Shown here: positions 19,703 to 39,346 of the stretch, piece by piece | Numbering within the stretch: position 1 is the stretch's first letter | Layout of the letters: every line of letters begins with the position of its first letter | Origin: an uncultured Verrucomicrobiae bacterium | GTDB taxonomy: Bacteria; Verrucomicrobiota; Verrucomicrobiia; Chthoniobacterales; JAATET01 | Reading direction: 5' to 3' | NCBI GenBank assembly: GCA_963719495.1 | Contig: CAVRCI010000014.1 | Coordinates: 64,001-128,000 of the forward strand | Length of the DNA stretch: 64,000 bases | Notes under the pieces: generated by a model | The model's input: the letters and a program-made list of their open reading frames with translations, nothing else | Told to the model about the DNA's origin: nothing | The model's database searches: none | Made by a program: the position numbers and the translations under genes

Positions 19703-21064
19703 ATGACGACGGCCCCACGATTTTCTTCCGAATACCCCCGCTCCGAAATCTACCGCGTCTTTGTCAACGGGACGGAGGTCCCGACGCTCTCCTGCGACGG
19801 CGCTGATTTCGCCGAGTGGACCGCGGATCCTGACGAGGAAATCCGGGTCGAAATCTGGGTATCCAAAACGTTGGGGGAAGGCGGCAAACCCTTCACGGTG
19901 CGGCCCCGCCGACTGACGACTCCCGTCACCCAGACGGGGGATCGGCTGGAATTCACTCTCGAAGGACCCGGGCGAAGATTGCTCGAACCCGCGTCTCAAA
20001 AGATTCGAGGTCTCGCGCTTTTCGTGGGCCCGCCGATGGAGCGAAGCGAACCGCCATCACCGAAAGATGGCGGGCGGCTGCATCGCTTCGCGGCTGGACA
20101 GATTCACGACGTCGGCTGCTTCACGCTCGGCGCCGGTGACGTGCTTTGGATCGAGCGGGGCGCGATTCTGCGCGGGTGTCTGATCGCGGAGGGCGACGAT
20201 GTGTTCATCGGAGGTGGGGGCATTCTCGACGTGGACCGACGGGCGTGGGGAACGAAACACGGTCGCGGGCTACTCGCCCGCTATTGCAGCCGGTTGCGGA
20301 TCGATGGTTTGACGGTCATCAATCCAGGCTGCTGGATGGTGATGATCGGAGGATCGACGGATTCCCGGCTTTCCAATCTGCGCCTGCTCGGTTCCGGTCC
20401 CGCGACGGACGGCGTGGATGTGGTGGGTAGCTCGCGGATCGTCGTCGAGGATGTGTTCTGCGTGAACGGGGACGACTGCCTCGTGGTCAAGGCCTTCGCC
20501 GGCTACGAAGATAGCCTCGGCGACGGTGGGCCGGATTGGCTGGGATTCAGTCGAAACGTCGAGGACGTCGTTTTTCAACGGTGCACCGTGGGGTGTTTCC
20601 TCGGCGGGTCGGCGATGGAAATCGGTCACGAACTCACGGCTCCGCGGGTTCGTGGGGTGACCTTCCGGGAGATTGACGTGCTCTTCGTGCACGATTTTGG
20701 CGCGGTTTTCAGCATTCACGTGGCTGACTCCGCGGAGGTGTCGCGCGTGCGTTACGACGACATTCGGATCGAGCATTGTTTCGATAAGCTGATCGACCTT
20801 CGGGTGCTCCGATCCCGGTGGAGCGAGGCCGCCGAGCGAGGTCGCATCCGGGACGTGCGGTTTGAAAATGTCGACTGGTGGACGCATCCCTACAACGCTG
20901 GGTACACGATGAGTGTGCTCGGCGGATGGGATGAAACCCATCTCGTCGAGGAGATAGCTTTTTCCGATTTCCGGATCGACGGCGAGCGGATCGAGAATAT
21001 CGACCGACTGGACATCCATTCCCGCTACGCTTCGGTTCCCACGCTCGAAGCGCCGCCGAGATGA
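19703..21064 (+). CDS. Pectin-lyase-fold glycoside hydrolase (GH28-like)
   Basis: GGGILD, TDGVD, NGDDCLVVKA and MEIGHE motifs; beta-helix character. Confidence 0.7.
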   Translation: MTTAPRFSSEYPRSEIYRVFVNGTEVPTLSCDGADFAEWTADPDEEIRVEIWVSKTLGEGGKPFTVRPRRLTTPVTQTGDRLEFTLEGPGRRLLEPASQKIRGLALFVGPPMERSEPPSPKDGGRLHRFAAGQIHDVGCFTLGAGDVLWIERGAILRGCLIAEGDDVFIGGGGILDVDRRAWGTKHGRGLLARYCSRLRIDGLTVINPGCWMVMIGGSTDSRLSNLRLLGSGPATDGVDVVGSSRIVVEDVFCVNGDDCLVVKAFAGYEDSLGDGGPDWLGFSRNVEDVVFQRCTVGCFLGGSAMEIGHELTAPRVRGVTFREIDVLFVHDFGAVFSIHVADSAEVSRVRYDDIRIEHCFDKLIDLRVLRSRWSEAAERGRIRDVRFENVDWWTHPYNAGYTMSVLGGWDETHLVEEIAFSDFRIDGERIENIDRLDIHSRYASVPTLEAPPR

Positions 21065-22602
21065 CGCCGATTCAGCCCTGGCGTGAGCATGAGATCGTGC
21101 TGGAAGCGGAGGAATTTGAGGGTGATCCGTATCTCGACGTCGAGGCGTGGATCGACTTCGAACACGAGTGCGGGACAGCTCTGCGCCGTCCGGCCTTCTG
21201 GGACGGCGGGGGCACGTGGCGGGTGCGGTTTGCGTCGCCATTACGCGATGGAATCTGGCGGTGGCGGAGTGGTGGAAACGTAACGGCGTTGGACGGGCGC
21301 GAGGGGACGCTGGAGGTCGTGCCCGGCGAGACCGTCGGTCGATTTGAAGCGCACGGGTTCTGGCACATTCCCGAGGGCGGGCGAAATCTCCTGCATCGCG
21401 ACGGGACGCCCGCGTTGCTGGTGGCGGACACCGCGTGGGCGCTGCCGTGGCGGGCGACGCTCGAGGATTGCGAAGCCTACGCCAAGCGCAGGGCGGAGCA
21501 GGGTTTTAACGCGGCACTGCTGATGACGCTGCAGCCGGATCGGAGGGCGGAGGGGCCGGAGGATCGCGAGGCCGACGGTGGGTTCGCGCGGGCGTTCGAC
21601 GATCTGCCGACGGGAACCCTCCGGCGGTTGCGTCCGCAGTATTTTCGGGAGTTTGATCGACTGGTCGGCGTCCTCGTCGCGCACGGGATCGTGCCGGTCT
21701 ATCAGCCCGTGTTTCACGGGTTCGGCTGGAAGGGACTGGGGACGGCGGGCAACGATGTCTCGCCGGAAGATTACGCCCGCTATTGCCGCTACCTCGTGGC
21801 GCGCTACGGGGCGCGGCCTGCGATTTATCTCGTGCTGGGTGACGGCGATGGCGAGTCCGAGGCGGTGCGTCGGGGCGGCGAGGAGATCGAGCGTTCGGAC
21901 GCCTACGGCCAGCCGACGGGCCTGCACTACGGTCCGCACGGAACGAATCGAAGTTTTCAGGAAGCCGGGTGGGTCGATTTCCAATGGTGCCAGACCGGGC
22001 ACAACGGCGAGCACCTGCCCGAGCGGACGGCGGACTTGTGGCGGAACGAGCCGGTGAAGGCGGTGGCAAATGGCGAGCCGACCTACGAGCGAATCGGCCG
22101 CCCGGACCGGGCGGTCGGTTGGTGGCAGGGGCACGAGGCGTGGTGCAACCTGTGCGCGGGCGGGACGATGGGGGTGGTCTACGGAGCGGGGAGTCTTTGG
22201 CAATGGAAGCTGCACCGCGACGAGCCGGGGCACCCGGAGTGGGCGATGGCTGCGAAAGCGGATTGGCGCGACGCGCTGGAATTCGAAGGCGCGAATTACG
22301 TCGGGCACGTGGGGCGGATCCTCGCCGGGATGGAATTCGACGGCATGGCACCAACTTGGAGTTTCACGTATGGCGGGAGGGCGCTGGCGGTCTCGGGGAA
22401 GTTCTTTCTCATCTACCTCGAACGGGGGGGCGATTGCACGATCCGCAGCGAAGCGGTCCCGCGGAGCTACCGGATATTTGACCCCCGGACGGGCGTCGTC
22501 GTCGCAACGGGCGAATTGGGAGCGGAGCGTCCCGCGCCGGTCTCAACGGGTTCGGAGGATGCGAGAGTCATCGTTTTTGGCGCCCCTCGAAGCGGCGGGT
22601 AG
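21061..22602 (+). CDS. DUF5060/DUF4038 domain protein (apiosidase/GH140-like hydrolase)
   Basis: PAFWDGGGTWRVRF, ADTAW, QGFNA, YLVARYGA, QTGH, NGEPTYE, YGAGSLWQW. Confidence 0.75.
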   Translation: MTPIQPWREHEIVLEAEEFEGDPYLDVEAWIDFEHECGTALRRPAFWDGGGTWRVRFASPLRDGIWRWRSGGNVTALDGREGTLEVVPGETVGRFEAHGFWHIPEGGRNLLHRDGTPALLVADTAWALPWRATLEDCEAYAKRRAEQGFNAALLMTLQPDRRAEGPEDREADGGFARAFDDLPTGTLRRLRPQYFREFDRLVGVLVAHGIVPVYQPVFHGFGWKGLGTAGNDVSPEDYARYCRYLVARYGARPAIYLVLGDGDGESEAVRRGGEEIERSDAYGQPTGLHYGPHGTNRSFQEAGWVDFQWCQTGHNGEHLPERTADLWRNEPVKAVANGEPTYERIGRPDRAVGWWQGHEAWCNLCAGGTMGVVYGAGSLWQWKLHRDEPGHPEWAMAAKADWRDALEFEGANYVGHVGRILAGMEFDGMAPTWSFTYGGRALAVSGKFFLIYLERGGDCTIRSEAVPRSYRIFDPRTGVVVATGELGAERPAPVSTGSEDARVIVFGAPRSGG

Positions 22603-22636
22603 GGAAAGATTTGGCTGATGAGGCGGCGGTCGTTGA

Positions 22637-22777
22637 TCATTCCGCCTCCCACGAATCCGTGCGGAAAGGTTCGGCGGGGAGAAACGAACTCCCGACAAGG
22701 TTGGCGATCGGGTTCTTCGCCCACGCGTAGCGAACGGCGACCGGACGCGGGATCCCGGGATGCGAGACGAACACCTC
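22637..22777 (-). pseudogene. 3' remnant of a sialate O-acetylesterase-family gene
   Basis: Translates [46 protein letters not shown], the characteristic [12 protein letters not shown]....LPA.PFRTD C-terminus; cut off exactly at the repeat array. Confidence 0.75.
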
Positions 22778-22837
22778 GAAGAGGGGTCGAAGAGGGGTCG
22801 TCGAAGGGGGGTCGGTCATTCATATGGACCTATTTAG
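22778..22837 (+). repeat. Truncated left-end copies of the 126-bp element (gaagaggggtc x2 and a 35-bp partial copy)
   Basis: gaagaggggtc at 22778 and 22789; gaaggggggtcggtcattcatatggacctatttag at 22803-22837. Confidence 0.9.
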
Positions 22838-22838
22838 T

Positions 22839-22964
22839 GAAGAGGGGTCGGTCATTCATATGGACCTATTTAGGATTCTGAGGATGTTCGATTCAAGGGG
22901 TTCGAAATACTTCAGCCGACCGGCGCAATTTGCAAATGTGTCAATATGAATGACCGACCCCTTC
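22839..22964. mobile_element. 126-bp MITE/REPIN-like element, copy 1 (intact)
   Basis: 19-bp perfect terminal inverted repeat aggggtcggtcattcatat / atatgaatgaccgacccct; near-identical to copies at 23114, 25101 and 26865. Confidence 0.85.
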
Positions 22965-22988
22965 GCCGGTGACTCGTTTTTCCAAGGG

Positions 22989-23113
22989 TATGAACGGGAA
23001 CATGGGTTACTGATAAACCGACCACATGGGTAACACTTAGAGGGTTAGCTTTCATGGCTTGCGGGAGCAAGCTTTGACTCCCAACGCTCGGCGTAGGCCG
23101 GAGGCCGAAGCCG
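22989..23113. mobile_element. Possible IS terminal fragment (IS481-like end) between array units
   Basis: Direct repeats acatgggttac (23000-23010) and acatgggtaac (23024-23034) at 24-bp spacing resemble iterated transposase-binding sites; family call from memory only. Confidence 0.35.
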
Positions 23114-23230
23114 GAAGAGGGGTCGGTCATTCATATGGACCTATTTAGGATTCTGAGGATGTTCGATTCAAGGGGTTCGAAATACTTCAGCCGACCGGCG
23201 CAATTTGCAAATGTGCCAATATGAATGACC
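23114..23230. mobile_element. 126-bp element copy 2, interrupted by IS110; its last 9 bp lie at 24825-24833
   Basis: First 117 bp match copy 1 (one substitution); gaccccttc resumes after the IS. Confidence 0.85.
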
Positions 23231-23529
23231 TCTCTGAAAAAAGGGTCGAAGGGCTGTCAAGGGTCTAATTTAGAGGGTTCTTGGCCCGAGTGGGGCGGGG
23301 AACGCAGAAGAAAGCGCCCAATGGGTGACCATCAGGGCAGGGAAAAGCGCGGGCTCTTACATCGAGGGAAGGAGCCTGTAAACTTGGGACGATAGCGATG
23401 CTGGAATCACACTTCTCTGCGGGGCGGGCACTTCTGGCCCCCATCCATTGTGGCGATCAGATCCCCAGCCCTCCATCCTGACCCAAGGTGCGCCGACTAA
23501 GTGCTAAGACTTAGCGACCAACCAGTCGT
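23231..23529 (-). ncRNA. Putative bridge/seek RNA region of IS110 copy 1
   Basis: Non-coding 3' end containing cctgaccc (target match, 23477-23484) and cttctctg (donor-end match, 23412-23419). Confidence 0.6.
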
Positions 23530-24741
23530 TCATTGGAGCGGCTGGGGAAATTGTTTTCGAGAAGATCGACGTTTGCGTCCCTGGCGTGTTTTCGGGGTTT
23601 TCATGTCTTCAATTTTTTCCTTGGCCAGGCCGGATCGGGAAGGCGTTTGCCCGTCCGCGTCACGGCGCTGGCTTCGGAGCTTTTGGGATTCAGGAAAGTT
23701 CGTGTAGGAACGCCCCTGGGTCAAGAGGCTCCAGGTGATTCGGGCCATCCGGCGGGCGGTGGCCAGAATGGCGGTGTTGGCTTTCTTGCCGTGAGCGCGT
23801 TTGTTTTTGTAGTAGTCGCCGAAGTAGGGCGAGCAGCCAACGGCTACCCAGGCGGCCTCGACGAAGGCCCAACGCAGCCACTTGTTGCACTGGGGCAGCA
23901 GGCGTCCGTGGTAGGTCTTACCGCCGCTGCTGCTCGTCGCCGGGCAGAGTCCCGCGTAGCCGCAGAGCTTCTGCGCGGAGGCAAAGCGCGAGATGTCGTC
24001 GATCTCGGCGACGACAACCGCGGCGAGGATGGGTCCCATCCCGGGGAGACTGCAGACGTGGGTGAGCTCGGGGCTTTGGCTCATGAGATCTTTGAGCGCT
24101 GCCTCGTCTTGGCGGATGCGAGCGACCAACTCGTTGTGGAGGGCGAGTTGCTGGGTCAGGAGCATGCCTGCTGGTTCGGGCAACTCGAGCTTCTCCAGAA
24201 AACTCAGTCCCTTCTTGCCGAAGAGGTCGCTGCAGACAGGAAGTTTAAGTTCGTGCTGCCCACCAAGTAACCGGTGGATGCGGTTGCGCAGCATCGTGCG
24301 TTGGCGCACGAAGAAACAGCGCTGGCGCAGCACGTTCTTGATGTCGCGGGTCTCGCGACTGGGGATGTGGACGCTCGAAATCAAATTGGCCCGCAACAGA
24401 TTGGCCAACGCTCGGGCGTCGATCTTATCGGTCTTGATTTGGGCCTCGGCGATGATCCGCGTCTTAAACGGGTTGGCCAACACGATGTTCTCGGCGGGCA
24501 TCACCTGCTCGAGAATCTCGTAGAGCCAGTGCCAGTTCATGCTCGCTTCGAAGACGATCCGGCACCCCGGCCACCGCTCGACGAGCCGCCCAAAATCTCC
24601 GCTGATCGCGTGCTCGATGCGCCCTTGGCCGAGCACCTCGCCGTGGCCATCAACCACGCAATAGACGCTGTATCGCTTGTGATAATCGATGCCAATGAAG
24701 CTCGATTCCGTCGGTAGGCTTTTTGGTTGGGTTTTCATCAC
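23530..24741 (-). CDS. IS110-family transposase/recombinase
   Basis: DEDD RuvC residues in IGIDYHK, VFEAS and KTDKIDA; Tnp20 domain LPGMGPILA, YAGLCP..SSSGG, LRWAFVEAA. Confidence 0.95.
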   Translation of the reverse strand: MMKTQPKSLPTESSFIGIDYHKRYSVYCVVDGHGEVLGQGRIEHAISGDFGRLVERWPGCRIVFEASMNWHWLYEILEQVMPAENIVLANPFKTRIIAEAQIKTDKIDARALANLLRANLISSVHIPSRETRDIKNVLRQRCFFVRQRTMLRNRIHRLLGGQHELKLPVCSDLFGKKGLSFLEKLELPEPAGMLLTQQLALHNELVARIRQDEAALKDLMSQSPELTHVCSLPGMGPILAAVVVAEIDDISRFASAQKLCGYAGLCPATSSSGGKTYHGRLLPQCNKWLRWAFVEAAWVAVGCSPYFGDYYKNKRAHGKKANTAILATARRMARITWSLLTQGRSYTNFPESQKLRSQRRDADGQTPSRSGLAKEKIEDMKTPKTRQGRKRRSSRKQFPQPLQ

Positions 24742-24833
24742 CCCAACCTACACCATTCATTTTATCAGGCTCTCCGGGCCCCACTTCCCAGCAACGCTCT
24801 ATTCATCAGCCTTTCATGCCGCCTGACCCCTTC

Positions 24834-25099
24834 GCCGGTGACTCGTTTTTCCAAGGGGCCCCCATTGATTTGAACGCGAGGACGAGACGTCCTCCCCCCG
24901 TTTTCGGCAACTCTCCAGGCGCTTCGAAGATGCGCTACGCGGTCACGGTAAGCGACGCCGACAGCGTGGCCGTCGAATCCTCGCCGCACCAGACCGTGAA
25001 CTCGCCCGGCTCGAGCAGCCATTTGCTGGTAGGCGAGAAATAGCCGAGCTCTTCCGCGCCCAATTCGAACGTCACCTCGCGTGCCTCGCCCGGCTGAAG
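24834..25099. repeat. 266-bp duplicate of 26991-27256, including the last ~55 codons of the GH3 gene
   Basis: Aligned by eye; about 5 substitutions. Confidence 0.92.
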
Positions 25100-25100
25100 T

Positions 25101-25217
25101 GAAGAGGGGTCGGTCATTCATATGGACCTATTTAGGATTCTGAGGATGTTCGATTCAAGGGGTTCGAAATACTTCAGCCGACCGGCGCAATTTGCAAATG
25201 TGTCAATATGAATGACC
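25101..25217. mobile_element. 126-bp element copy 3, interrupted by IS110; its last 9 bp lie at 26812-26820
   Basis: Identical to the first 117 bp of copy 1. Confidence 0.85.
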
Positions 25218-25516
25218 TCTCTGAAAAAAGGGTCGAAGGGCTGTCAAGGGTCTAATTTAGAGGGTTCTTGGACCGAGTGGGGCATGGGACGCAGAAGAAA
25301 GCGCCCAATGGGTGACCATCAGGGCAGGGAAAAGCGCGGGCTCTTACATTAAGGGAAGGAGCCTGTAAACTTGGGACGATAGCGATGCTGGAATCACACT
25401 TCTCTGCGGGGCGGGCACTTCTGGCCCCCATCCATTGTGGCGATCAGATCCCCAGCCCTCCATCCTGACCCAAGGTGCGCCGACTAAGTGCTAAGACTTA
25501 GCGACCAACCAGTCGT
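25218..25516 (-). ncRNA. Putative bridge/seek RNA region of IS110 copy 2
   Basis: Same as copy 1 apart from six substitutions. Confidence 0.6.
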
Positions 25517-26728
25517 TCATTGGAGCGGCTGGGGAAATTGTTTTCGAGAAGATCGACGTTTGCGTCCCTGGCGTGTTTTCGGGGTTTTCATGTCTTCAAT
25601 TTTTTCCTTGGCCAGGCCGGATCGGGAAGGCGTTTGCCCGTCCGCGTCACGGCGCTGGCTTCGGAGCTTTTGGGATTCAGGAAAGTTCGTGTAGGAACGC
25701 CCCTGGGTCAAGAGGCTCCAGGTGATTCGGGCCATCCGGCGGGCGGTGGCCAGAATGGCGGTGTTGGCTTTCTTGCCGTGAGCGCGTTTGTTTTTGTAGT
25801 AGTCGCCGAAGTAGGGCGAGCAGCCAACGGCTACCCAGGCGGCCTCGACGAAGGCCCAACGCAGCCACTTGTTGCACTGGGGCAGCAGGCGTCCGTGGTA
25901 GGTCTTACCGCCGCTGCTGCTCGTCGCCGGGCAGAGTCCCGCGTAGCCGCAGAGCTTCTGCGCGGAGGCAAAGCGCGAGATGTCGTCGATCTCGGCGACG
26001 ACAACCGCGGCGAGGATGGGTCCCATCCCGGGGAGACTGCAGACGTGGGTGAGCTCGGGGCTTTGGCTCATGAGATCTTTGAGCGCTGCCTCGTCTTGGC
26101 GGATGCGAGCGACCAACTCGTTGTGGAGGGCGAGTTGCTGGGTCAGGAGCATGCCTGCTGGTTCGGGCAACTCGAGCTTCTCCAGAAAACTCAGTCCCTT
26201 CTTGCCGAAGAGGTCGCTGCAGACAGGAAGTTTAAGTTCGTGCTGCCCACCAAGTAACCGGTGGATGCGGTTGCGCAGCATCGTGCGTTGGCGCACGAAG
26301 AAACAGCGCTGGCGCAGCACGTTCTTGATGTCGCGGGTCTCGCGACTGGGGATGTGGACGCTCGAAATCAAATTGGCCCGCAACAGATTGGCCAACGCTC
26401 GGGCGTCGATCTTATCGGTCTTGATTTGGGCCTCGGCGATGATCCGCGTCTTAAACGGGTTGGCCAACACGATGTTCTCGGCGGGCATCACCTGCTCGAG
26501 AATCTCGTAGAGCCAGTGCCAGTTCATGCTCGCTTCGAAGACGATCCGGCACCCCGGCCACCGCTCGACGAGCCGCCCAAAATCTCCGCTGATCGCGTGC
26601 TCGATGCGCCCTTGGCCGAGCACCTCGCCGTGGCCATCAACCACGCAATAGACGCTGTATCGCTTGTGATAATCGATGCCAATGAAGCTCGATTCCGTCG
26701 GTAGGCTTTTTGGTTGGGTTTTCATCAC
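25517..26728 (-). CDS. IS110-family transposase/recombinase
   Basis: Protein identical to 23530-24741. Confidence 0.95.
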   Translation of the reverse strand: MMKTQPKSLPTESSFIGIDYHKRYSVYCVVDGHGEVLGQGRIEHAISGDFGRLVERWPGCRIVFEASMNWHWLYEILEQVMPAENIVLANPFKTRIIAEAQIKTDKIDARALANLLRANLISSVHIPSRETRDIKNVLRQRCFFVRQRTMLRNRIHRLLGGQHELKLPVCSDLFGKKGLSFLEKLELPEPAGMLLTQQLALHNELVARIRQDEAALKDLMSQSPELTHVCSLPGMGPILAAVVVAEIDDISRFASAQKLCGYAGLCPATSSSGGKTYHGRLLPQCNKWLRWAFVEAAWVAVGCSPYFGDYYKNKRAHGKKANTAILATARRMARITWSLLTQGRSYTNFPESQKLRSQRRDADGQTPSRSGLAKEKIEDMKTPKTRQGRKRRSSRKQFPQPLQ

Positions 26729-26864
26729 CCCAACCTACACCATTCATTTTATCAGGCTCTCCGGGCCCCACTTCCCAGCAACGCTCTATTCATCAGCCTT
26801 TCATGCCGCCTGACCCCTTCGTGTGTCCGGAGCCTCTGGTGGCGGGGGAAGTGGGGGAGTTTTC

Positions 26865-26990
26865 GAAGAGGGGTCGGTCATTCATATGGACCTATTTAGG
26901 ATTCTGAGGATGTTCGATTCAAGGGGTTCGAAATACTTCAGCCGACCGGCGCAATTTGCAAATGTGTCAATATGAATGACCGACCCCTTC
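26865..26990. mobile_element. 126-bp element copy 4 (intact)
   Basis: Identical to 22839-22964. Confidence 0.85.
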
Positions 26991-27091
26991 GCCGGTGACT
27001 CGTTTTTCCAAGGGGCCCCCATTGATTTGAGTGCGTGGACGAGACGTCCTCCCCCCGTTTTCGGCAACTCTCCAGGCGCTTCGAAGATGCG

Positions 27092-29236
27092 CTACGCGGT
27101 CACGGTAAGCGACGCCGACAGCGTGGCCGTCGAATCCTCGCCGCACCAGACCGTGAACTCGCCCGGCTCGACCAGCCATTTGCCGGTAGGCGAGAAATAG
27201 CCGAGCTCTTCCGCGCCCAATTCGAACGTCACCTCGCGTGCCTCGCCCGGCTGAAGCGAGATCCGCTCGAAGCCACGGAGTTCGCGGACTGGACGGGTGT
27301 GGGCCGAGAACTCGTCGCGGACGTAACATTGGACGACCGTCTCGCCGACGAGCGTTCCGGTGTTTCGCACCGCGACGCGGACCGTCGCCGTCCCACCGAC
27401 CGGAATGGTCTCGGGCGTGACGATCACGTTTCGCAATTCGAACGTCGTGTAGCTGCGCCCGAATCCGAAGGGATAGCGCGGGTCGTCGAGGTTGTCGCGG
27501 TAGCGCCGGTCCGAGTACCGGTCCGTGATGTCGGTCGGACGCCCGGTCGAGAGTTGGGCGTAATATTGCGGGACGTGGCCGACCGAGCGCGGCAGCGTGA
27601 TCGGGAGTTTGCCCGACGGGTTCTCGTCGCCGAAGAGAACGTCAGCCACGCAGCGACCGCCCGAGATGCCGGGATGCCAGCAGTAAACGACCGCATCCAC
27701 GCCGCTCAACGCGCTCAAATCCAGCGGCCGTCCGGCGAATACAACCGCGACGATCGGGATGCCCACACTGCGCAGGGAATCGACGAGCGCCGACTGCCCG
27801 GCGGGCAACTCGAGGGTCGCCAGGCTGTTCGCCTCGCCGCTGCGGGCGTCGGATTCTCCGAGGAAAAGGACGACCGCTTCGCAGAAGCGCGCGTGGGGGA
27901 GGAGTTCGTCCACGAGTTCGGACGTCATCGCATTCCGCGGATCGGCGAGCTTTTCTCGGAAGGCGGTCAGTGGCGTGACGACGTCCTCGGTCCGACCGTC
28001 CAGGCACCACGTCCCGAGCATCGCCCGGGCTGCGTTCGCGAGTGGACCGCCGACCAGATAGCGGACTCCCGTCTTCCGCAGCGGCAGGACGTTGTGGTTG
28101 TTTTCCAGAAGAACGACGGACTTCCGCGCGATTTCGAGCGCCGTTTCGACGTGATCGACCCGCAGGTGGTCGCGAGCCGCCGCCGCCTCGTCCGGGTAGG
28201 GATCGTCGAACAACCCGAAACGTTCCTTCACCGCGAGGATGCGCCCCACGGCCTCGTCGAGCCGCGCCTCCGGCACGAATCCGGACTCGACCAGCTTGGG
28301 CAGGAACTCGACGAACGCACCGGTCACCATGTCCATGTCGGCCCCGGCGTTGGCCGCGAGCGCGGTGGCGGCCTCGCGGGTTTCCGCGACCCGGTGCGCG
28401 ACCAGCTCGCCGACCGCGTTCCAGTCGGTGACGACGACTCCGTCGAAGCCCAATTTCTCGCGCAAGATTTCCGTGAGCAGACGACGGTTCCCGGCGGCGG
28501 GCATTCCGCCGAACGATTGAAACGCCGACATCATCGAGGCGACGCCCGCCCGGATCGCCGCGATGAAGGTCGGCAAATAAACGTTCCAAAGCGCGTATTC
28601 ACTGATCTCGGAGACGTGGTAATCGCGCCCGCCCTCGGCAGCGCCGTAGCCGACGAAATGCTTTGCGCAAGCCGCCATCGCCGTGCCGTCACCGTCGTCT
28701 TCCTGGATCCCCCGCACGGCGGCCTCGGTCAGCCGCGACGCCAGCCACGGATCCTCGCCGAAGCCTTCCGCCACGCGTCCCCAGCGCGGATCGCGCCCGA
28801 TGTCGACCATGGGCGTGAAAGTCCACCGGATCCCGTCCGCCACCGCCTCCCGAGCCATGGCCCGCGCCATCCGGCGGACCAACTCCGGCGACCACGCCGC
28901 GGCCTGACCCAGCGGAATCGGGCCGACCGCGCGATGACCATGAATCACGTCCCGCCCGGCGGTGAACGGAATGCCCAGCCGCGACCGTTCGACGGCAATG
29001 CGCTGGAGGTCGTTCAGCCACTGCGAGGACGGACGATCCTGCTCCTCGTTCCCCGCGAAAGCCGTGCTTGCGCAGATCAGTGAGCCGACGCCGCCCGCGG
29101 CGATCAGCTCCTCGATTCCGTCGTCCCCGATCCGCGCCTGATTCATCTGGCCGGCCTTCTCGGCGATCGTCATGGAGGCCAGAAGATCCCGGACTCGGGG
29201 CGTGAGCGGGTGGAGCGGGGATGGGGTGGTCGTCAC
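27092..29236 (-). CDS. GH3 beta-glucosidase (BglX-like); start approximate
   Basis: DVIHGH, RDPRWGRVAEGFGEDP, KHFVGYG, VVTDW nucleophile, NPSGKLP, YPFGFG, C-terminal Fn3-like domain. Confidence 0.93.
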   Translation of the reverse strand: MTTTPSPLHPLTPRVRDLLASMTIAEKAGQMNQARIGDDGIEELIAAGGVGSLICASTAFAGNEEQDRPSSQWLNDLQRIAVERSRLGIPFTAGRDVIHGHRAVGPIPLGQAAAWSPELVRRMARAMAREAVADGIRWTFTPMVDIGRDPRWGRVAEGFGEDPWLASRLTEAAVRGIQEDDGDGTAMAACAKHFVGYGAAEGGRDYHVSEISEYALWNVYLPTFIAAIRAGVASMMSAFQSFGGMPAAGNRRLLTEILREKLGFDGVVVTDWNAVGELVAHRVAETREAATALAANAGADMDMVTGAFVEFLPKLVESGFVPEARLDEAVGRILAVKERFGLFDDPYPDEAAAARDHLRVDHVETALEIARKSVVLLENNHNVLPLRKTGVRYLVGGPLANAARAMLGTWCLDGRTEDVVTPLTAFREKLADPRNAMTSELVDELLPHARFCEAVVLFLGESDARSGEANSLATLELPAGQSALVDSLRSVGIPIVAVVFAGRPLDLSALSGVDAVVYCWHPGISGGRCVADVLFGDENPSGKLPITLPRSVGHVPQYYAQLSTGRPTDITDRYSDRRYRDNLDDPRYPFGFGRSYTTFELRNVIVTPETIPVGGTATVRVAVRNTGTLVGETVVQCYVRDEFSAHTRPVRELRGFERISLQPGEAREVTFELGAEELGYFSPTGKWLVEPGEFTVWCGEDSTATLSASLTVTA

Positions 29237-29488
29237 GTTTTGAATAGGAAAGTTGGTTTCGCGGATTGGATGATCGGCTTCCGCAAACTTACCCATTTGT
29301 CAGCATGAAAACAACGGTCCCCTCGCGCTCTCGTCCCTTGTTTTGGCCTTGTTCCCGACTGCCCCCGCCCTCGCCGAACCCATCGCCTACGAGGGTCTCG
29401 AGTCCGGCTCGACCTCCGGGGCGAGGGTTTTGCTCTGTTTTTCCGTCTCCCTTGCGTGGGGGTGGGGGTTTTTGCGATAGGTATCGGT

Positions 29489-36565: not shown

Positions 36566-39301
36566 TCACCCGGATAGCGCTCTCAGCTTTTTCTGATGGG
36601 CGGTGAGCCAGGTCTTTAGCTTGGCGTGGGCGGGGTCCTCGAGTTGCGGGTCGGTTTCGAAGATCGCTCTCGCTTGGTCGCGGGCTTGGAGCATTTCGGC
36701 TTGGTCGCGGTGGAGGTCGCCGAGGCGGAGGGGGGGGAGGCCGGTTTGGGCGGTGCCGATGAGGTCGCCGGGGCCGCGGAGGGCGAGGTCGGCTTCGGCG
36801 ACCCGGAAGCCGTCGGTGGTTTGCTCGAGGACGCTGAGCTTTTCGCGGGCTTCGGGAGTGTCTTTGCCGGGGACGAGGATGCAGTAGCTGGTGTGGGTGC
36901 CGCGGCCGATGCGGCCGCGGAGTTGGTGGAGCTGCGCCAAGCCGAAGCGCTCGGCATTTTCGATGAGCATGACGGTGGCGTTGGGGACGTCGACGCCGAC
37001 TTCGATGACGGTCGTGCTGACGAGGACCTTGGTCTCGGCGGTGCGGAAGGCGGTCATGGCCGCTTCCTTTTCGTCGGGCTTGAGGCGGCCGTGGAGGAGG
37101 CCGCAGGGGTGGGGGGACAGGAGTTCGCTCCAACGGGTGAACTCTTCGGTGGCGGCTTTGGCGGCGAGTTTTTCCGATTCTTCGATGAGGGGGTAGACGA
37201 TGTAAATCTGGCGTCCGGCTTCGATCTGGTCGCGGAGGAATTTTGCGGCTTCGGGGAGTTTGCTGGTGGGGCGGATGCCGGTGATGATTCTGCCGCGGCC
37301 GGGGGGGAGTTCGTTCAGCGTGGTGACGTCGAGGTCGCCGTAGGCGGTCTGCGCGAGGGTGCGGGGGATGGGGGTGGCGGTCATGACGAGGACGTCGGGG
37401 GTGCCGGGTCCGTCGATGAGCTTGGCGCGCTGGAGGACGCCGAATTTGTGCTGCTCGTCGATGATGACGAGGCCGGGATCGGCGAGTTCGGCGGGGTCGT
37501 GCAGGAGGGCGTGCGTGCCGATGAGGAGTTGGGGAGCGCGCCCGTCCCGGGTGCGGGCTTCGGCGTTCCGCCGAAGCGCGGGCGGCGGGGACGCCGCCCG
37601 CTCGCACGCGGGGACGCGTGCGCTCCCCAGAGCGATGCGGGCGGATTCCATTTCTTTTTCCGGCCACCAGACGTGGGGGTAGTCGCTGTTTTCGTCCGCC
37701 AGGTTGGCGGTCCATGGGTTGCGGCAGATGTAGTGGAATTTTTCCTGGAGGTCGGCCTCGAAGCGGATGATTCGGTCGAAGCTCTCTTTTTCCCAGAGCG
37801 GACCCTTTTTTTGTTCGCGGTGGTTGATCTCGTGGACGGTGTAGGATTTGAGGCTGTGGAGGAGGGTGGCCAGGCGATGGAAAACGGGGCGGCCTTCGGC
37901 GTCTTCGCTTTCGACTTGTGGCTCGACGAGGATGTGGACGTGGTCGGGCATGACGCAAGCGGCGTAGAGGTGCCACTTGGACGCGTCGCGGATGTGGAGG
38001 ATGGCGTCGAGGACGATCTGGCGGGCCGCCGGAGTGAGGTGGCGGCGGGCAATCGTCGTGAAGGTGATCATGTATTTGGCCCAGGGGCGCTCGAAGTGGG
38101 GGAGGTTGCGTTTCGAGTAGCGGGTTTCGGTGGGCGGGGCGGGGGTCTCTCGTGGAATGCGCGGCGGCGGGACGCCGCCGCTCGCACCCGGGACGGGTGC
38201 GTTCCCCATGCGGAGCTTGACTTCGACTCCGAGGGGTTCGCAGAGGTGTTTTAGGTTTTTGTAATGCTGGTTTGCGAGGATCTGAGTCGGGGCCATGAGG
38301 ATGGCTTGGTGGCCGGCTTCGATGCCGGTGAGGGCGGCGGCCAGGGCTACCAGGGTTTTTCCGCTGCCGACGTCGCCTTGGAGGAGGCGGGTCATGCGGG
38401 TGGGCTTGGCGAGGTCCTTTTTGATCTCGGCGATGGCCTGGGCTTGGGCGTCGGTGAGGAGGAAGGGAAGGGTGGCGAGGAGTTCGCGGAGGAGGGTGCC
38501 TTCGGGGGCTTTGGGGGAGCCGGGGAGGGTGGCGACGTGGGCTCGGCGGGAGGCGATGAGGGCCTGCATGGCAAAGAATTCTTCGCCGACGAGGGCGCGG
38601 CGGGCGGTTTCGTAGGCTTCGAAGGTGGGTGGGAAATGGAGGGGGCGGAGGTGATCGGTGAATGGGGAATGGTGAATGGTGGGTCTGAGGGTAGGGATCT
38701 GGCTTAGGTCGGTGGCCTCGAGGGCTTCGTGGATGAGTTCGCGGAGCTTTCTTGGGGTGATGCCTTCTCCGGCGGGGTGGACGGGGACGATGCGGTTGAG
38801 GTGAACGAAATCGGTGGGATCGCCTTCTTCGAGGATCTCGAATTCGGGGAAGTCGATGATCGTTCGTTTTCCGCGGAGTTTGGTGCGGCCGTAGACGACG
38901 AGCTGCTGGCCGACGGCGAGCTGTTTGCCGATGTAGGGCATGTTGAACCATCGGCAGGTGACGCGGGCGCCGAAGCCGCTGGGTTCTTCGAGGGTGGCCT
39001 CGTAGCCCTTTTTCCATCCGCCGTAGGGGAGGAAGCGGGCCGAGACGAGGGTGCCGCTGAGGAGGACGGGGTCGACGCTTTCGCCGTCGGGGTAGGGGGC
39101 GAAGTGGCGGCGGTCTTCGTGCCGTCGCGGGTAGTGGGTGACGAGGTCGGCGAGGGTCTCGAGGCCGACTTTGCGGAGGCTGGTGGCCTGTTTGCGGGTG
39201 ATGAAGGGGGCGTCGCTGAGGGGGGTGGTGGGGGGGAGGAGGGGGGGGGCGTGATTGGTGAATGGTGAATGGTGAATGGTGGGGGGGTGCTCGTGGCTCA
39301 T
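36566..39301 (-). CDS. recG: ATP-dependent DNA helicase RecG with an in-frame RAYT transposase insertion
   Basis: HYPRRHED wedge domain, LLQGDVGSGKT, MAPTQILA, GTHAL, IIDEQHKFG, MTATPIPRTL, TTVIEVGVDVPNA, QLHQLRGRIGRG, DGF.VAEADL.LRGPG. Confidence 0.95.
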   Translation of the reverse strand: MSHEHPPTIHHSPFTNHAPPLLPPTTPLSDAPFITRKQATSLRKVGLETLADLVTHYPRRHEDRRHFAPYPDGESVDPVLLSGTLVSARFLPYGGWKKGYEATLEEPSGFGARVTCRWFNMPYIGKQLAVGQQLVVYGRTKLRGKRTIIDFPEFEILEEGDPTDFVHLNRIVPVHPAGEGITPRKLRELIHEALEATDLSQIPTLRPTIHHSPFTDHLRPLHFPPTFEAYETARRALVGEEFFAMQALIASRRAHVATLPGSPKAPEGTLLRELLATLPFLLTDAQAQAIAEIKKDLAKPTRMTRLLQGDVGSGKTLVALAAALTGIEAGHQAILMAPTQILANQHYKNLKHLCEPLGVEVKLRMGNAPVPGASGGVPPPRIPRETPAPPTETRYSKRNLPHFERPWAKYMITFTTIARRHLTPAARQIVLDAILHIRDASKWHLYAACVMPDHVHILVEPQVESEDAEGRPVFHRLATLLHSLKSYTVHEINHREQKKGPLWEKESFDRIIRFEADLQEKFHYICRNPWTANLADENSDYPHVWWPEKEMESARIALGSARVPACERAASPPPALRRNAEARTRDGRAPQLLIGTHALLHDPAELADPGLVIIDEQHKFGVLQRAKLIDGPGTPDVLVMTATPIPRTLAQTAYGDLDVTTLNELPPGRGRIITGIRPTSKLPEAAKFLRDQIEAGRQIYIVYPLIEESEKLAAKAATEEFTRWSELLSPHPCGLLHGRLKPDEKEAAMTAFRTAETKVLVSTTVIEVGVDVPNATVMLIENAERFGLAQLHQLRGRIGRGTHTSYCILVPGKDTPEAREKLSVLEQTTDGFRVAEADLALRGPGDLIGTAQTGLPPLRLGDLHRDQAEMLQARDQARAIFETDPQLEDPAHAKLKTWLTAHQKKLRALSG
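37530..38208 (-). mobile_element. REP-flanked RAYT (Y1/HUH tyrosine transposase) module inserted in frame in recG
   Basis: RNLPHF, YMITFTT, CVMPDHVHIL (HUH), LKSYT, LWEKESFDRIIR, YICRNP (catalytic Tyr); REP doublet at 37530-37629 and REP at 38161-38208. Confidence 0.9.
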
Positions 39302-39346
39302 CGACCAATAACCAAAAATTAATAACCAACAACCGGCGCGCAGCGC

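Follow-up and report, generated by a model that had tools for sequence, protein, structure and literature searches.

How does a small DNA element that encodes nothing come to stand several times over beside itself, in copies that share nearly the same starting base and end at many different ones? The question is raised by an array at positions 22778..27256 of the window, by which we mean the whole 64,000-nt stretch analyzed here (positions 64,001 to 128,000 of contig CAVRCI010000014.1, assembly GCA_963719495.1, from an uncultured Verrucomicrobiae bacterium). Seven units in the same orientation start at 22778, 22789, 22803, 22839, 23114, 25101, and 26865, and a base-for-base check bore out every one of these starts, which an earlier note made from the sequence alone had given. 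Units 1 to 6 measure 11, 14, 36, 275, 1987, and 1764 nt, and unit 7 is the native copy of a 126-bp element with terminal inverted repeats (TIRs). Units 1 to 3 are 11-, 14-, and 36-nt prefixes of the left end of the element, and the native right flank is present three times within the array, again as the note had it. In our view the units are probably copies, some partial and some run-through, stacked up from one end of a nonautonomous element of the TIRtron/TIRYT class, in which a Y1-HUH transposase gene lies between TIRs.

The earlier note observed that no enzyme is encoded inside the element, which indeed encodes nothing. Its TIRs are 28 to 29 nt long with ~90% complementarity, and the whole folds into a long stem (z −5.1; 0 of 200 shuffles). 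The first 13 nt of the TIR occur in 40 exact genomic copies. A Y1/RAYT-type partner acting in trans, which the note had envisaged, was found intact at C13:309608-310555 (C numbers are contigs of the genome under study, G000; other G numbers are other genomes). This gene encodes a 311-aa Y1 protein and carries the element's TIR at both ends, occupying C13:309596-310595 with its TIRs; the ends match the element's right TIR at 100% over 29 to 30 nt. Because the element and an intact Y1 gene share these ends, the 126-bp unit is a predicted nonautonomous member of the TIRtron/TIRYT class. The element that the note did not recognize thus falls into a described class, the TIRtrons/TIRYTs and their TIR repeat families (Di Nocera et al. 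2013, PMC3733652), which corresponds to TnpA-Y1 subclass 2.1 (Quentin et al. 2018, PMC6006769). That subclass has been linked (bioRxiv 2020.03.09.984088) to RAYT group 1, the most insertion sequence (IS)-like RAYT group (Bertels et al. 2017, PMC5581495).

The partner protein agrees with this placement. A Pfam Y1_Tnp search of the genome gave 12 matches, 6 of them proteins of 311 to 351 aa between inverted GGGGTC ends. The C13 protein scores 43.6 bits against Y1_Tnp (cutoff, 23), its H60, H62, and Y121 are invariant across 38 sequences, and the top Foldseek match of its model (pLDDT 90) is TnpA-REP 4er8. Its score of 49 lies below the NCBIfam REP_Tyr_transpos cutoff of 80. The model ends in three short C-terminal helices (268-305), with no Pfam helix-turn-helix match at E 0.01. 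As in the published class, to the extent covered by the parts of those sources drawn on here, a Y1 HUH protein of ~310 to 350 aa lies between TIRs starting with GGGGTC, there is no repetitive extragenic palindromic (REP) hairpin, and free TIR copies occur as singles, dimers, or clusters. The array's TIR departs from the class consensus GGGGWSAS by a G in place of the A (GGGGTCGG, 7 of 8 positions), a motif carried by most, not all, published TIRs. The A is present in the orthologous ends of G002 and G004 and in the other TIRYT families of this genome, and proteins 62 to 72% identical to the C13 protein carry this TIR type in G002, G004, G007, and G013. The full 126-bp element was not found in 16 relatives, of which 7 had TIR-length matches only; a diverged pair of the whole element lies on C7.

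Outward copying is frequent at ends of this class. We found a clean outward tandem duplication at 54 of 123 distinct TIR ends of this genome. In other genomes, 80 TIRYT loci were fetched, of which 55 allowed a TIR pair to be called, and 28 of their 105 ends bore such a duplication. The control rates were 1.4% for random positions (42 of 3000) and 1.0% for GGGGTC sites outside TIRs (14 of 1440). The feature is real: outward duplications lie far above control sites. The external loci span Verrucomicrobiota, Gammaproteobacteria, Betaproteobacteria, Nitrospirota, and Acidobacteriota, and duplications are present in the named isolates L066, L067, and L081. Most of the 46 frequent repeat strands of this genome that were tested scored 0 to 2%; in that test, the element's own TIR gave 8 of 35 on the outer side versus 2 of 33 on the inner side. 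TIRYT genes were present in 42 of 81 related genomes, and we estimate ~24,000 matching stretches in the genome collection. Judged by its nearest TIRYT matches, the host is probably a verrucomicrobium. A short doublet pattern occurred in 15 of 42 TIRYT-positive versus 2 of 38 TIRYT-negative genomes (G016 left out), although these genomes, like the pairs of related ends described below, are kin and not independent. Longer copies recur as well, as a run-through copy of 349 bp in G013 (100% identical), a nested set in G005, and long nested copies on C7, on C15, and at 7 of 54 external loci.

Where do the copies begin? Among 86 junctions of this genome, 60 were clean and 4 inherited, and among 55 external junctions, 28 were clean and 4 inherited. 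Junction statistics are based on the 79 clean junctions with at most 5 nt of ambiguity, or 76 after duplicate removal. The earlier note had described a fixed start and a variable end. The end is variable, whereas the start is tight without being fixed: copies begin 4 to 12 nt outside GGGGTC with a mode of 5, and offsets of 4 to 6 account for ~43 of 76 junctions (~57%). The bases just outside the TIR also appear to belong to it. At least 4 outer nucleotides are common to both ends in 10 of 54 two-ended elements (1.3 expected), and related ends at different loci have 4 to 5 outer nucleotides in common in 14 of 36 pairs versus 56 of 1820 unrelated pairs. The 14 pairs include 2 inside the array, and 5 further pairs are whole-locus repeats. 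From these matches we infer that the outer 4 to 5 nt travel along with the TIR end, which would place the cut there.

A mechanism that would produce such junctions can be outlined. HUH enzymes leave a 5′-phosphotyrosine and a free 3′-OH. We propose, with somewhat more confidence than doubt, a nick near −5, strand-displacement copying, and re-joining by the HUH enzyme, together with one-ended joins that truncate neighbors. The transposase, acting in trans, would nick ~5 nt outside GGGGTC on the GGGG strand and remain on the 5′ end via phosphotyrosine. A host polymerase would extend the free 3′-OH by strand displacement, and the enzyme would re-ligate the bound 5′ end to a 3′ end, either freshly copied or foreign. 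Such a sequence of steps predicts what is observed, outward copies that start within a narrow range and end variably, with homology not required. Copying would mostly stop 0 to 2 or 6 to 8 nt into the TIR, where the polymerase may meet bound protein or a second cut may fall, and would sometimes carry on over hundreds of bases, past the far TIR and into the flank, as that TIR would not act as a terminator on this strand. If the same 5′ end were joined to an unrelated 3′-OH, adjacent deletions and orphan fragments would result. The one-ended or rolling-circle copying suggested in the earlier note fits the junctions, and we keep it as a provisional account. A similar nick-extend-religate model was proposed for bacterial interspersed mosaic elements (BIMEs) from in vitro data, as far as the source used here covers it. 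Since the junctions predict a cut (−5, range −4 to −8) and supply a cognate enzyme together with a minimal substrate of 126 bp, the model is directly testable. If it is true, TIRYT ends would often give rise to duplications and deletions in their neighborhood and would truncate genes, all without target duplications.

The positions at which copies end bear on two alternatives. Ends peak at 0 to 2 and at 6 to 8 nt into the TIR (+7), dip at 4 to 5, and show smaller peaks at ~12 and ~24. We considered whether the +7 peak was a detection threshold and discarded this, as the dip at +4/+5 was seen when shorter units were admitted. It is possible, though rather unlikely in our judgment, that the transposase cuts twice, near −5 and at a loosely specified second site, on the two sister single strands at a fork, and that unequal exchange without displacement synthesis yields one duplication and one deletion product. 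The discrete end peaks at +7, +12, and +24 would suit such a second site, no microhomology would be needed, and TnpA-REP performs strand transfer between cleavage sites in vitro (PMC3333891, in the part of that study relevant here). Ends with GGGG on the C-rich strand are also slightly commoner (53 versus 32, p 0.03). However, copies that end at 0 to 2 nt or inside unrelated ISs would require cut sites almost anywhere, and whether an end is duplicated shows no strand bias (Fisher p 0.65); nor did the duplications themselves show a replication-strand bias. We regard as very improbable a further alternative, in which staggered cuts at −5 on one strand and +7 on the other, followed by fill-in and end-joining, give a ~12-bp duplication, akin to a target duplication without an insert. 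The commonest unit length, 11 to 13 nt, is what staggered cuts would give, but copies of hundreds of bases would be impossible, a Ku gene was not found in this 98.6% complete genome, and two-ended elements lack target duplications. For the latter, 54 two-ended elements examined at offsets 0 to 8 gave nothing above chance (3 versus 3.05 permuted). None was found at the array's element either. The note had set solitary copies with target duplications, as in ordinary miniature inverted-repeat transposable elements (MITEs), against its reading; other copies instead share the polarity of the array.

Homology at the joints bears on whether an enzyme is needed at all. Host replication might stall at a protein-bound or hairpin TIR and the nascent strand re-prime by microhomology, through slippage or template switching, with the transposase only binding or not needed; we consider this improbable. 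Microhomology of 0, 1, 2, and at least 3 nt was seen at 29, 22, 16, and 9 of 76 junctions, for which a simulated null gives 56, 25, 12, and 6%. The excess, slight as it is, is in the direction expected from slippage, as are the strong stem into which the element folds and the range of start offsets over 4 to 12 nt. Yet the excess is far below what slippage needs, with no microhomology at 29 of 76 junctions and at most 1 nt at 51 of 76. Moreover, most other palindromic repeat families lack such duplications, solitary TIR ends without a stem bear them too, and slippage leaves the outer 4 to 5 nt common to different loci unexplained.

Returning to copying from a nick near −5, we can read the array unit by unit (plus strand unless stated otherwise). 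Unit 1 (22778..22788) is a 5-nt leader with the initial 6 nt of the TIR. Unit 2 (22789..22802) holds the leader, 7 nt of the TIR, and then 2 nt matching outer-flank positions −7/−6, and the copy after it likely begins at −7; the short form of unit 2 is seen again at C9:183974 and in G013. Unit 3 (22803..22838) has one changed base in its 5-nt leader, followed by ~30 nt of the left TIR and a T, and an extra T stands at the beginning of units 4 and 6. Unit 4 opens with a complete element identical to that of unit 7 (22839..22964), then has a 22-bp copy of the native right flank (22965..22986) and 127 bp of other DNA (22987..23113, minus strand). The element of unit 5 (initial 117 bp at 23114..23230, with 1 substitution) is interrupted within its right TIR, at GACC^GACCCC, by an IS110-family element (23231..24824, minus strand; transposase at 23530-24741, minus strand), after which come the remainder of the TIR, a 266-bp copy of the native flank with 5 differences, and a T (24825..25100). 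That flank copy contains a REP-like repeat and the 3′ end of a GH3 gene. Unit 6 (initial 117 bp at 25101..25217) bears a second IS110 copy at the same TIR site (25218..26811, minus strand) and continues with the remainder of the TIR and 44 bp of unplaced DNA (26812..26864). Unit 7 is the native complete element (26865..26990), and its right flank (26991..27256), which served as template for the flank copies of units 4 and 5, contains the GH3 3′ end.

The native element is placed between two convergent sugar genes of the host, an apiosidase-like/DUF5060 gene (21061..22602, plus strand) and the GH3 glycoside hydrolase gene (27092..29296, minus strand). A search for an empty site matched GH3 in 2 of 60 relatives at 1e-100, with a close orthologue only in G001; the G001 locus has no element and a different neighbor gene, and it does not show the preinsertion site. 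The REP-like repeat of the flank lies at 24870-24906 in unit 5 and at 27027-27063 in the native copy; the unit-5 version is a common variant with 7 genomic copies, and the native one is a unique variant.

How much of the array is captured foreign DNA, as the earlier note proposed? Its three-part division of unit 4 holds, with the lengths corrected from 126 + 24 + 125 bp to 126 bp of element, 22 bp of flank, and 127 bp. These 127 bp are the right end of an IS481-like element, present in four full copies on C13; they start precisely at its terminus and are cut off where unit 5 starts, so this is not DNA of unknown origin. The piece has 7 differences from the C13 full copies and 1 difference from a contig of run X3. 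Most simply, the IS481-like element entered the copied flank and was then truncated at the unit 5 start. The full element has a 403-aa open reading frame (ORF) whose best model is IS481 (110 bits, against a cutoff of 224, on a 271-aa part), and 2 of its 4 full copies have a 3-bp duplication. Of the four IS481 fragments in the genome, three break off where a TIR starts, as does the single long IS110 fragment on C7 (121 bp). One-ended joins may have produced both the truncated IS481 end and the 44-bp orphan. The 44 bp (26821-26864) sit between the outer sides of two ends; a 23-nt probe from them had no exact match in the metagenome contigs, and the genome itself gave only chance-level fuzzy matches. 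No gene or adaptive cargo is evident at the array locus, at odds with the note's idea of accumulating foreign fragments. As a separate observation, three of the C13 IS481-like copies (C13:309574, 350485, and 502742) share a right flank of ~50 bp with two TIR starts, then diverge inside the TIR, and have a matching 3-bp duplication in only one case; gene conversion or assembly homogenization might account for the identical flanks.

The IS110 copies split units 5 and 6 into 117 + 1594 + 9 bp, and all five full genomic copies, as well as the partial one, sit at GACY^GACCC. The family assignment is clear (DEDD and Transposase_20 both present; NF033542 at 237 bits, cutoff 140; Pfam agrees). A ~300-bp noncoding region 3′ of the gene gives an IS1111-type layout, with a best subterminal inverted match of 8 to 9 of 12. 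The unit-6 IS110 is identical to the C9 copy. The unit-5 copy has 6 clustered changes from it, common to C4 (and to C7 where they overlap), and 0 differences from the unit-6/C9 copy outside this patch. In unit 5, the element has 1 difference and the flank 5 differences from the native sequence. Since the TIR is the IS110 target, and since the unit-5 IS110 has not drifted outside the patch while the surrounding element and flank have, IS110 likely came after the copies were made, as a targeted passenger. We therefore dropped IS110 as read-through cargo, with gene conversion still a possible source of the undrifted copy. With an IS481-like insertion and a site-specific IS110, neither shows capture by read-through; what is left of the captured DNA is the 44 bp. 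Within the passenger, the noncoding region (window 23285-23364 and 25272-25351) has two haplotypes differing at 6 clustered sites, one in unit 5, C4, and C7 and the other in unit 6, C9, and C2, possibly two guide-RNA variants. Two short segments at window 23478-23498 resemble halves of the TIR target; two short matches were insufficient for us to call them guides. A 32-bp copy of this stretch stands alone behind another gene at C13:458272-458303.

Several observations weigh against the nick-and-extend account. Gapped junctions make up 22 of the 86 in this genome and 23 of the 55 external ones. The start is spread over several sites with no clear dinucleotide rule, and there is a modest microhomology excess (zero, 38% versus 56% expected; at least 3 nt, 12% versus 6%). 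The inner-side control gave 17 of 230, a test contaminated by neighboring copies, while simple tandem repeats reached 8 to 32% in four tested families, one REP end 13 of 77, and a few other repeat strands 5 to 11%. The kinship of the counted genomes and pairs belongs here too. Because units 4 and 6 contain DNA that the native flank lacks, the array is no simple series in cis, and one has to suppose additional steps of IS insertion and deletion. The nicked strand is not readable from the junctions. Each catalytic step is a deduction, and our confidence in the account is moderate.

No read crosses the array, another point against us, and no contig spans it among the low-depth contigs of runs X1, X2, X3, and X5, so that the assembly is supported only indirectly. 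An assembly artifact around repeated ISs would fit this lack of a spanning contig and the suspiciously identical 50-bp right flank of the three C13 IS481-like copies. We nevertheless judge an artifact extremely improbable. Natural haplotypes in units 4 to 6 argue against a collapsed repeat: the unit-6 IS110 is that of C9, the unit-5 patch that of C4/C7, and the genome has 7 copies of the unit-5 REP variant. Between the IS481 piece and a contig of another study there is 1 difference, X1 contigs show joints matching the C3, C7, and C9 duplication loci, and the pattern recurs in isolates and other assemblies. X1 matches the unique flanks without differences, but it may be the source sample and is thus not independent; its lack of cover at 22600-22921 is uninformative at low depth. 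Of the spanning check that the earlier note called for, then, the contigs fell short, and distinct natural haplotypes in the units stand in favor of the assembly.

The behavior that we did not find described is the end-anchored outward copying; the element class is already known. In the TIRYT literature covered, which leaves subscription journals out of scope and comes to two works that use the name, TIR dimers and clusters are described, and we found no nested outward polarity, start near −5, common outer bases, run-through copies, or mechanism, although Fig. 9 and the supplements of PMC3733652 could show such clusters. The proposed TIRYT nick, extension, and re-joining would work like model B for BIME amplification in Ton-Hoang et al. 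2012 (PMC3333891), who showed cleavage and strand transfer by TnpA-REP: a nick, host extension of the 3′-OH, and attack on the 5′-phosphotyrosine add one more tandem unit. As presented in the part of that source used here, BIMEs are anchored on the REP hairpin, their units are regular, and cleavage is at C^T, whereas the anchor here is a TIR, with no fixed dinucleotide and units of 5 bp to kilobases. Nor is the 126-bp sequence a REPtron/REPIN, as it has no GTAG-type foot and its ends are linear TIRs. A classical DDE-mobilized MITE was likewise rejected, given the lack of target duplication at the element and the chance-level count in the 54 TIRYT elements.

One-ended transposition of IS91 is the nearest functional analogue. 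The IS91 enzyme is Y2-type. IS91/ISCR elements (PMC13181058, in the portion used) resemble the array in one fixed end, a variable other end, a mobilized flank, and no target duplication; they differ in having distinct oriIS and terIS and a fixed tetranucleotide target, whereas the ends here are alike and both apparent origins, with locus-dependent outer bases. We excluded IS91/ISCR identity for this reason, that both ends duplicate outward and the outer bases vary by locus. The passenger, for its part, resembles IS1111-type elements such as IS4321/IS5075 in Tn21 TIRs and ISPa11 in REPs (PMC11187229, as far as that source was drawn on) in its downstream noncoding region and its single repeat site in 5 of 5 full copies. 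It differs in its target, a TIRYT TIR, and in its weak subterminal inverted repeats (8 to 9 of 12), the group hallmark being a downstream noncoding region with 11- to 13-bp subterminal inverted repeats.

More speculatively, and with less confidence than we place in the copying itself, TIRYTs may represent a third HUH mode, apart from IS200/IS605 peel-and-paste and IS91 rolling circle, in which each TIR is a terminator-less origin and the enzyme-bound 5′ end can be joined to almost any 3′ end. If so, one reaction would yield end duplications, run-through copies, adjacent deletions, and spliced-in foreign fragments; TIR ends would be a widespread local genome-shuffling device, and the array would record all four outcomes at one end.

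A few minor observations concern TIRYT relatives elsewhere. At C15:2333-5123, three 3′ fragments of an intact TIRYT gene (58, 247, and 191 aa; 92 to 98% identical) lie behind it, each ending at the downstream TIR. Many truncated C-terminal gene fragments near full copies, like those on C15, accompany tnpA-REP genes of the same subclass 2.1 beside prochlorosin genes in picocyanobacteria (10.1101/2020.03.09.984088), where inverted repeats and end-anchored nesting were not found by the authors; an added note to that work sees no strong evidence for a causal link. A second nonautonomous element with the same TIR, of 87 bp, lies at C1:175811-175896, C4:333501-333586, C4:336442-336527, and C13:311926-312011. 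The two flanks at C4:336442 do not read through as a single gene, a sign of possible rearrangement more than of clean insertion. At C13:679150-698469, five same-strand solitary TIR ends with a common 70-bp inner tail are spread over 20 kb with unrelated DNA between them, a cassette-like arrangement.

Genome-wide, the GC skew is very strong (up to ±0.3), and several repeat families have 100 to 200 copies. Y1 transposase domains also stand in frame within RecG-, LeuRS-, and AlaRS-like ORFs (host names read from translations), at window 36566-39346 (C14:100566-103346), C10:1249-4539, and C13:378005-381496.

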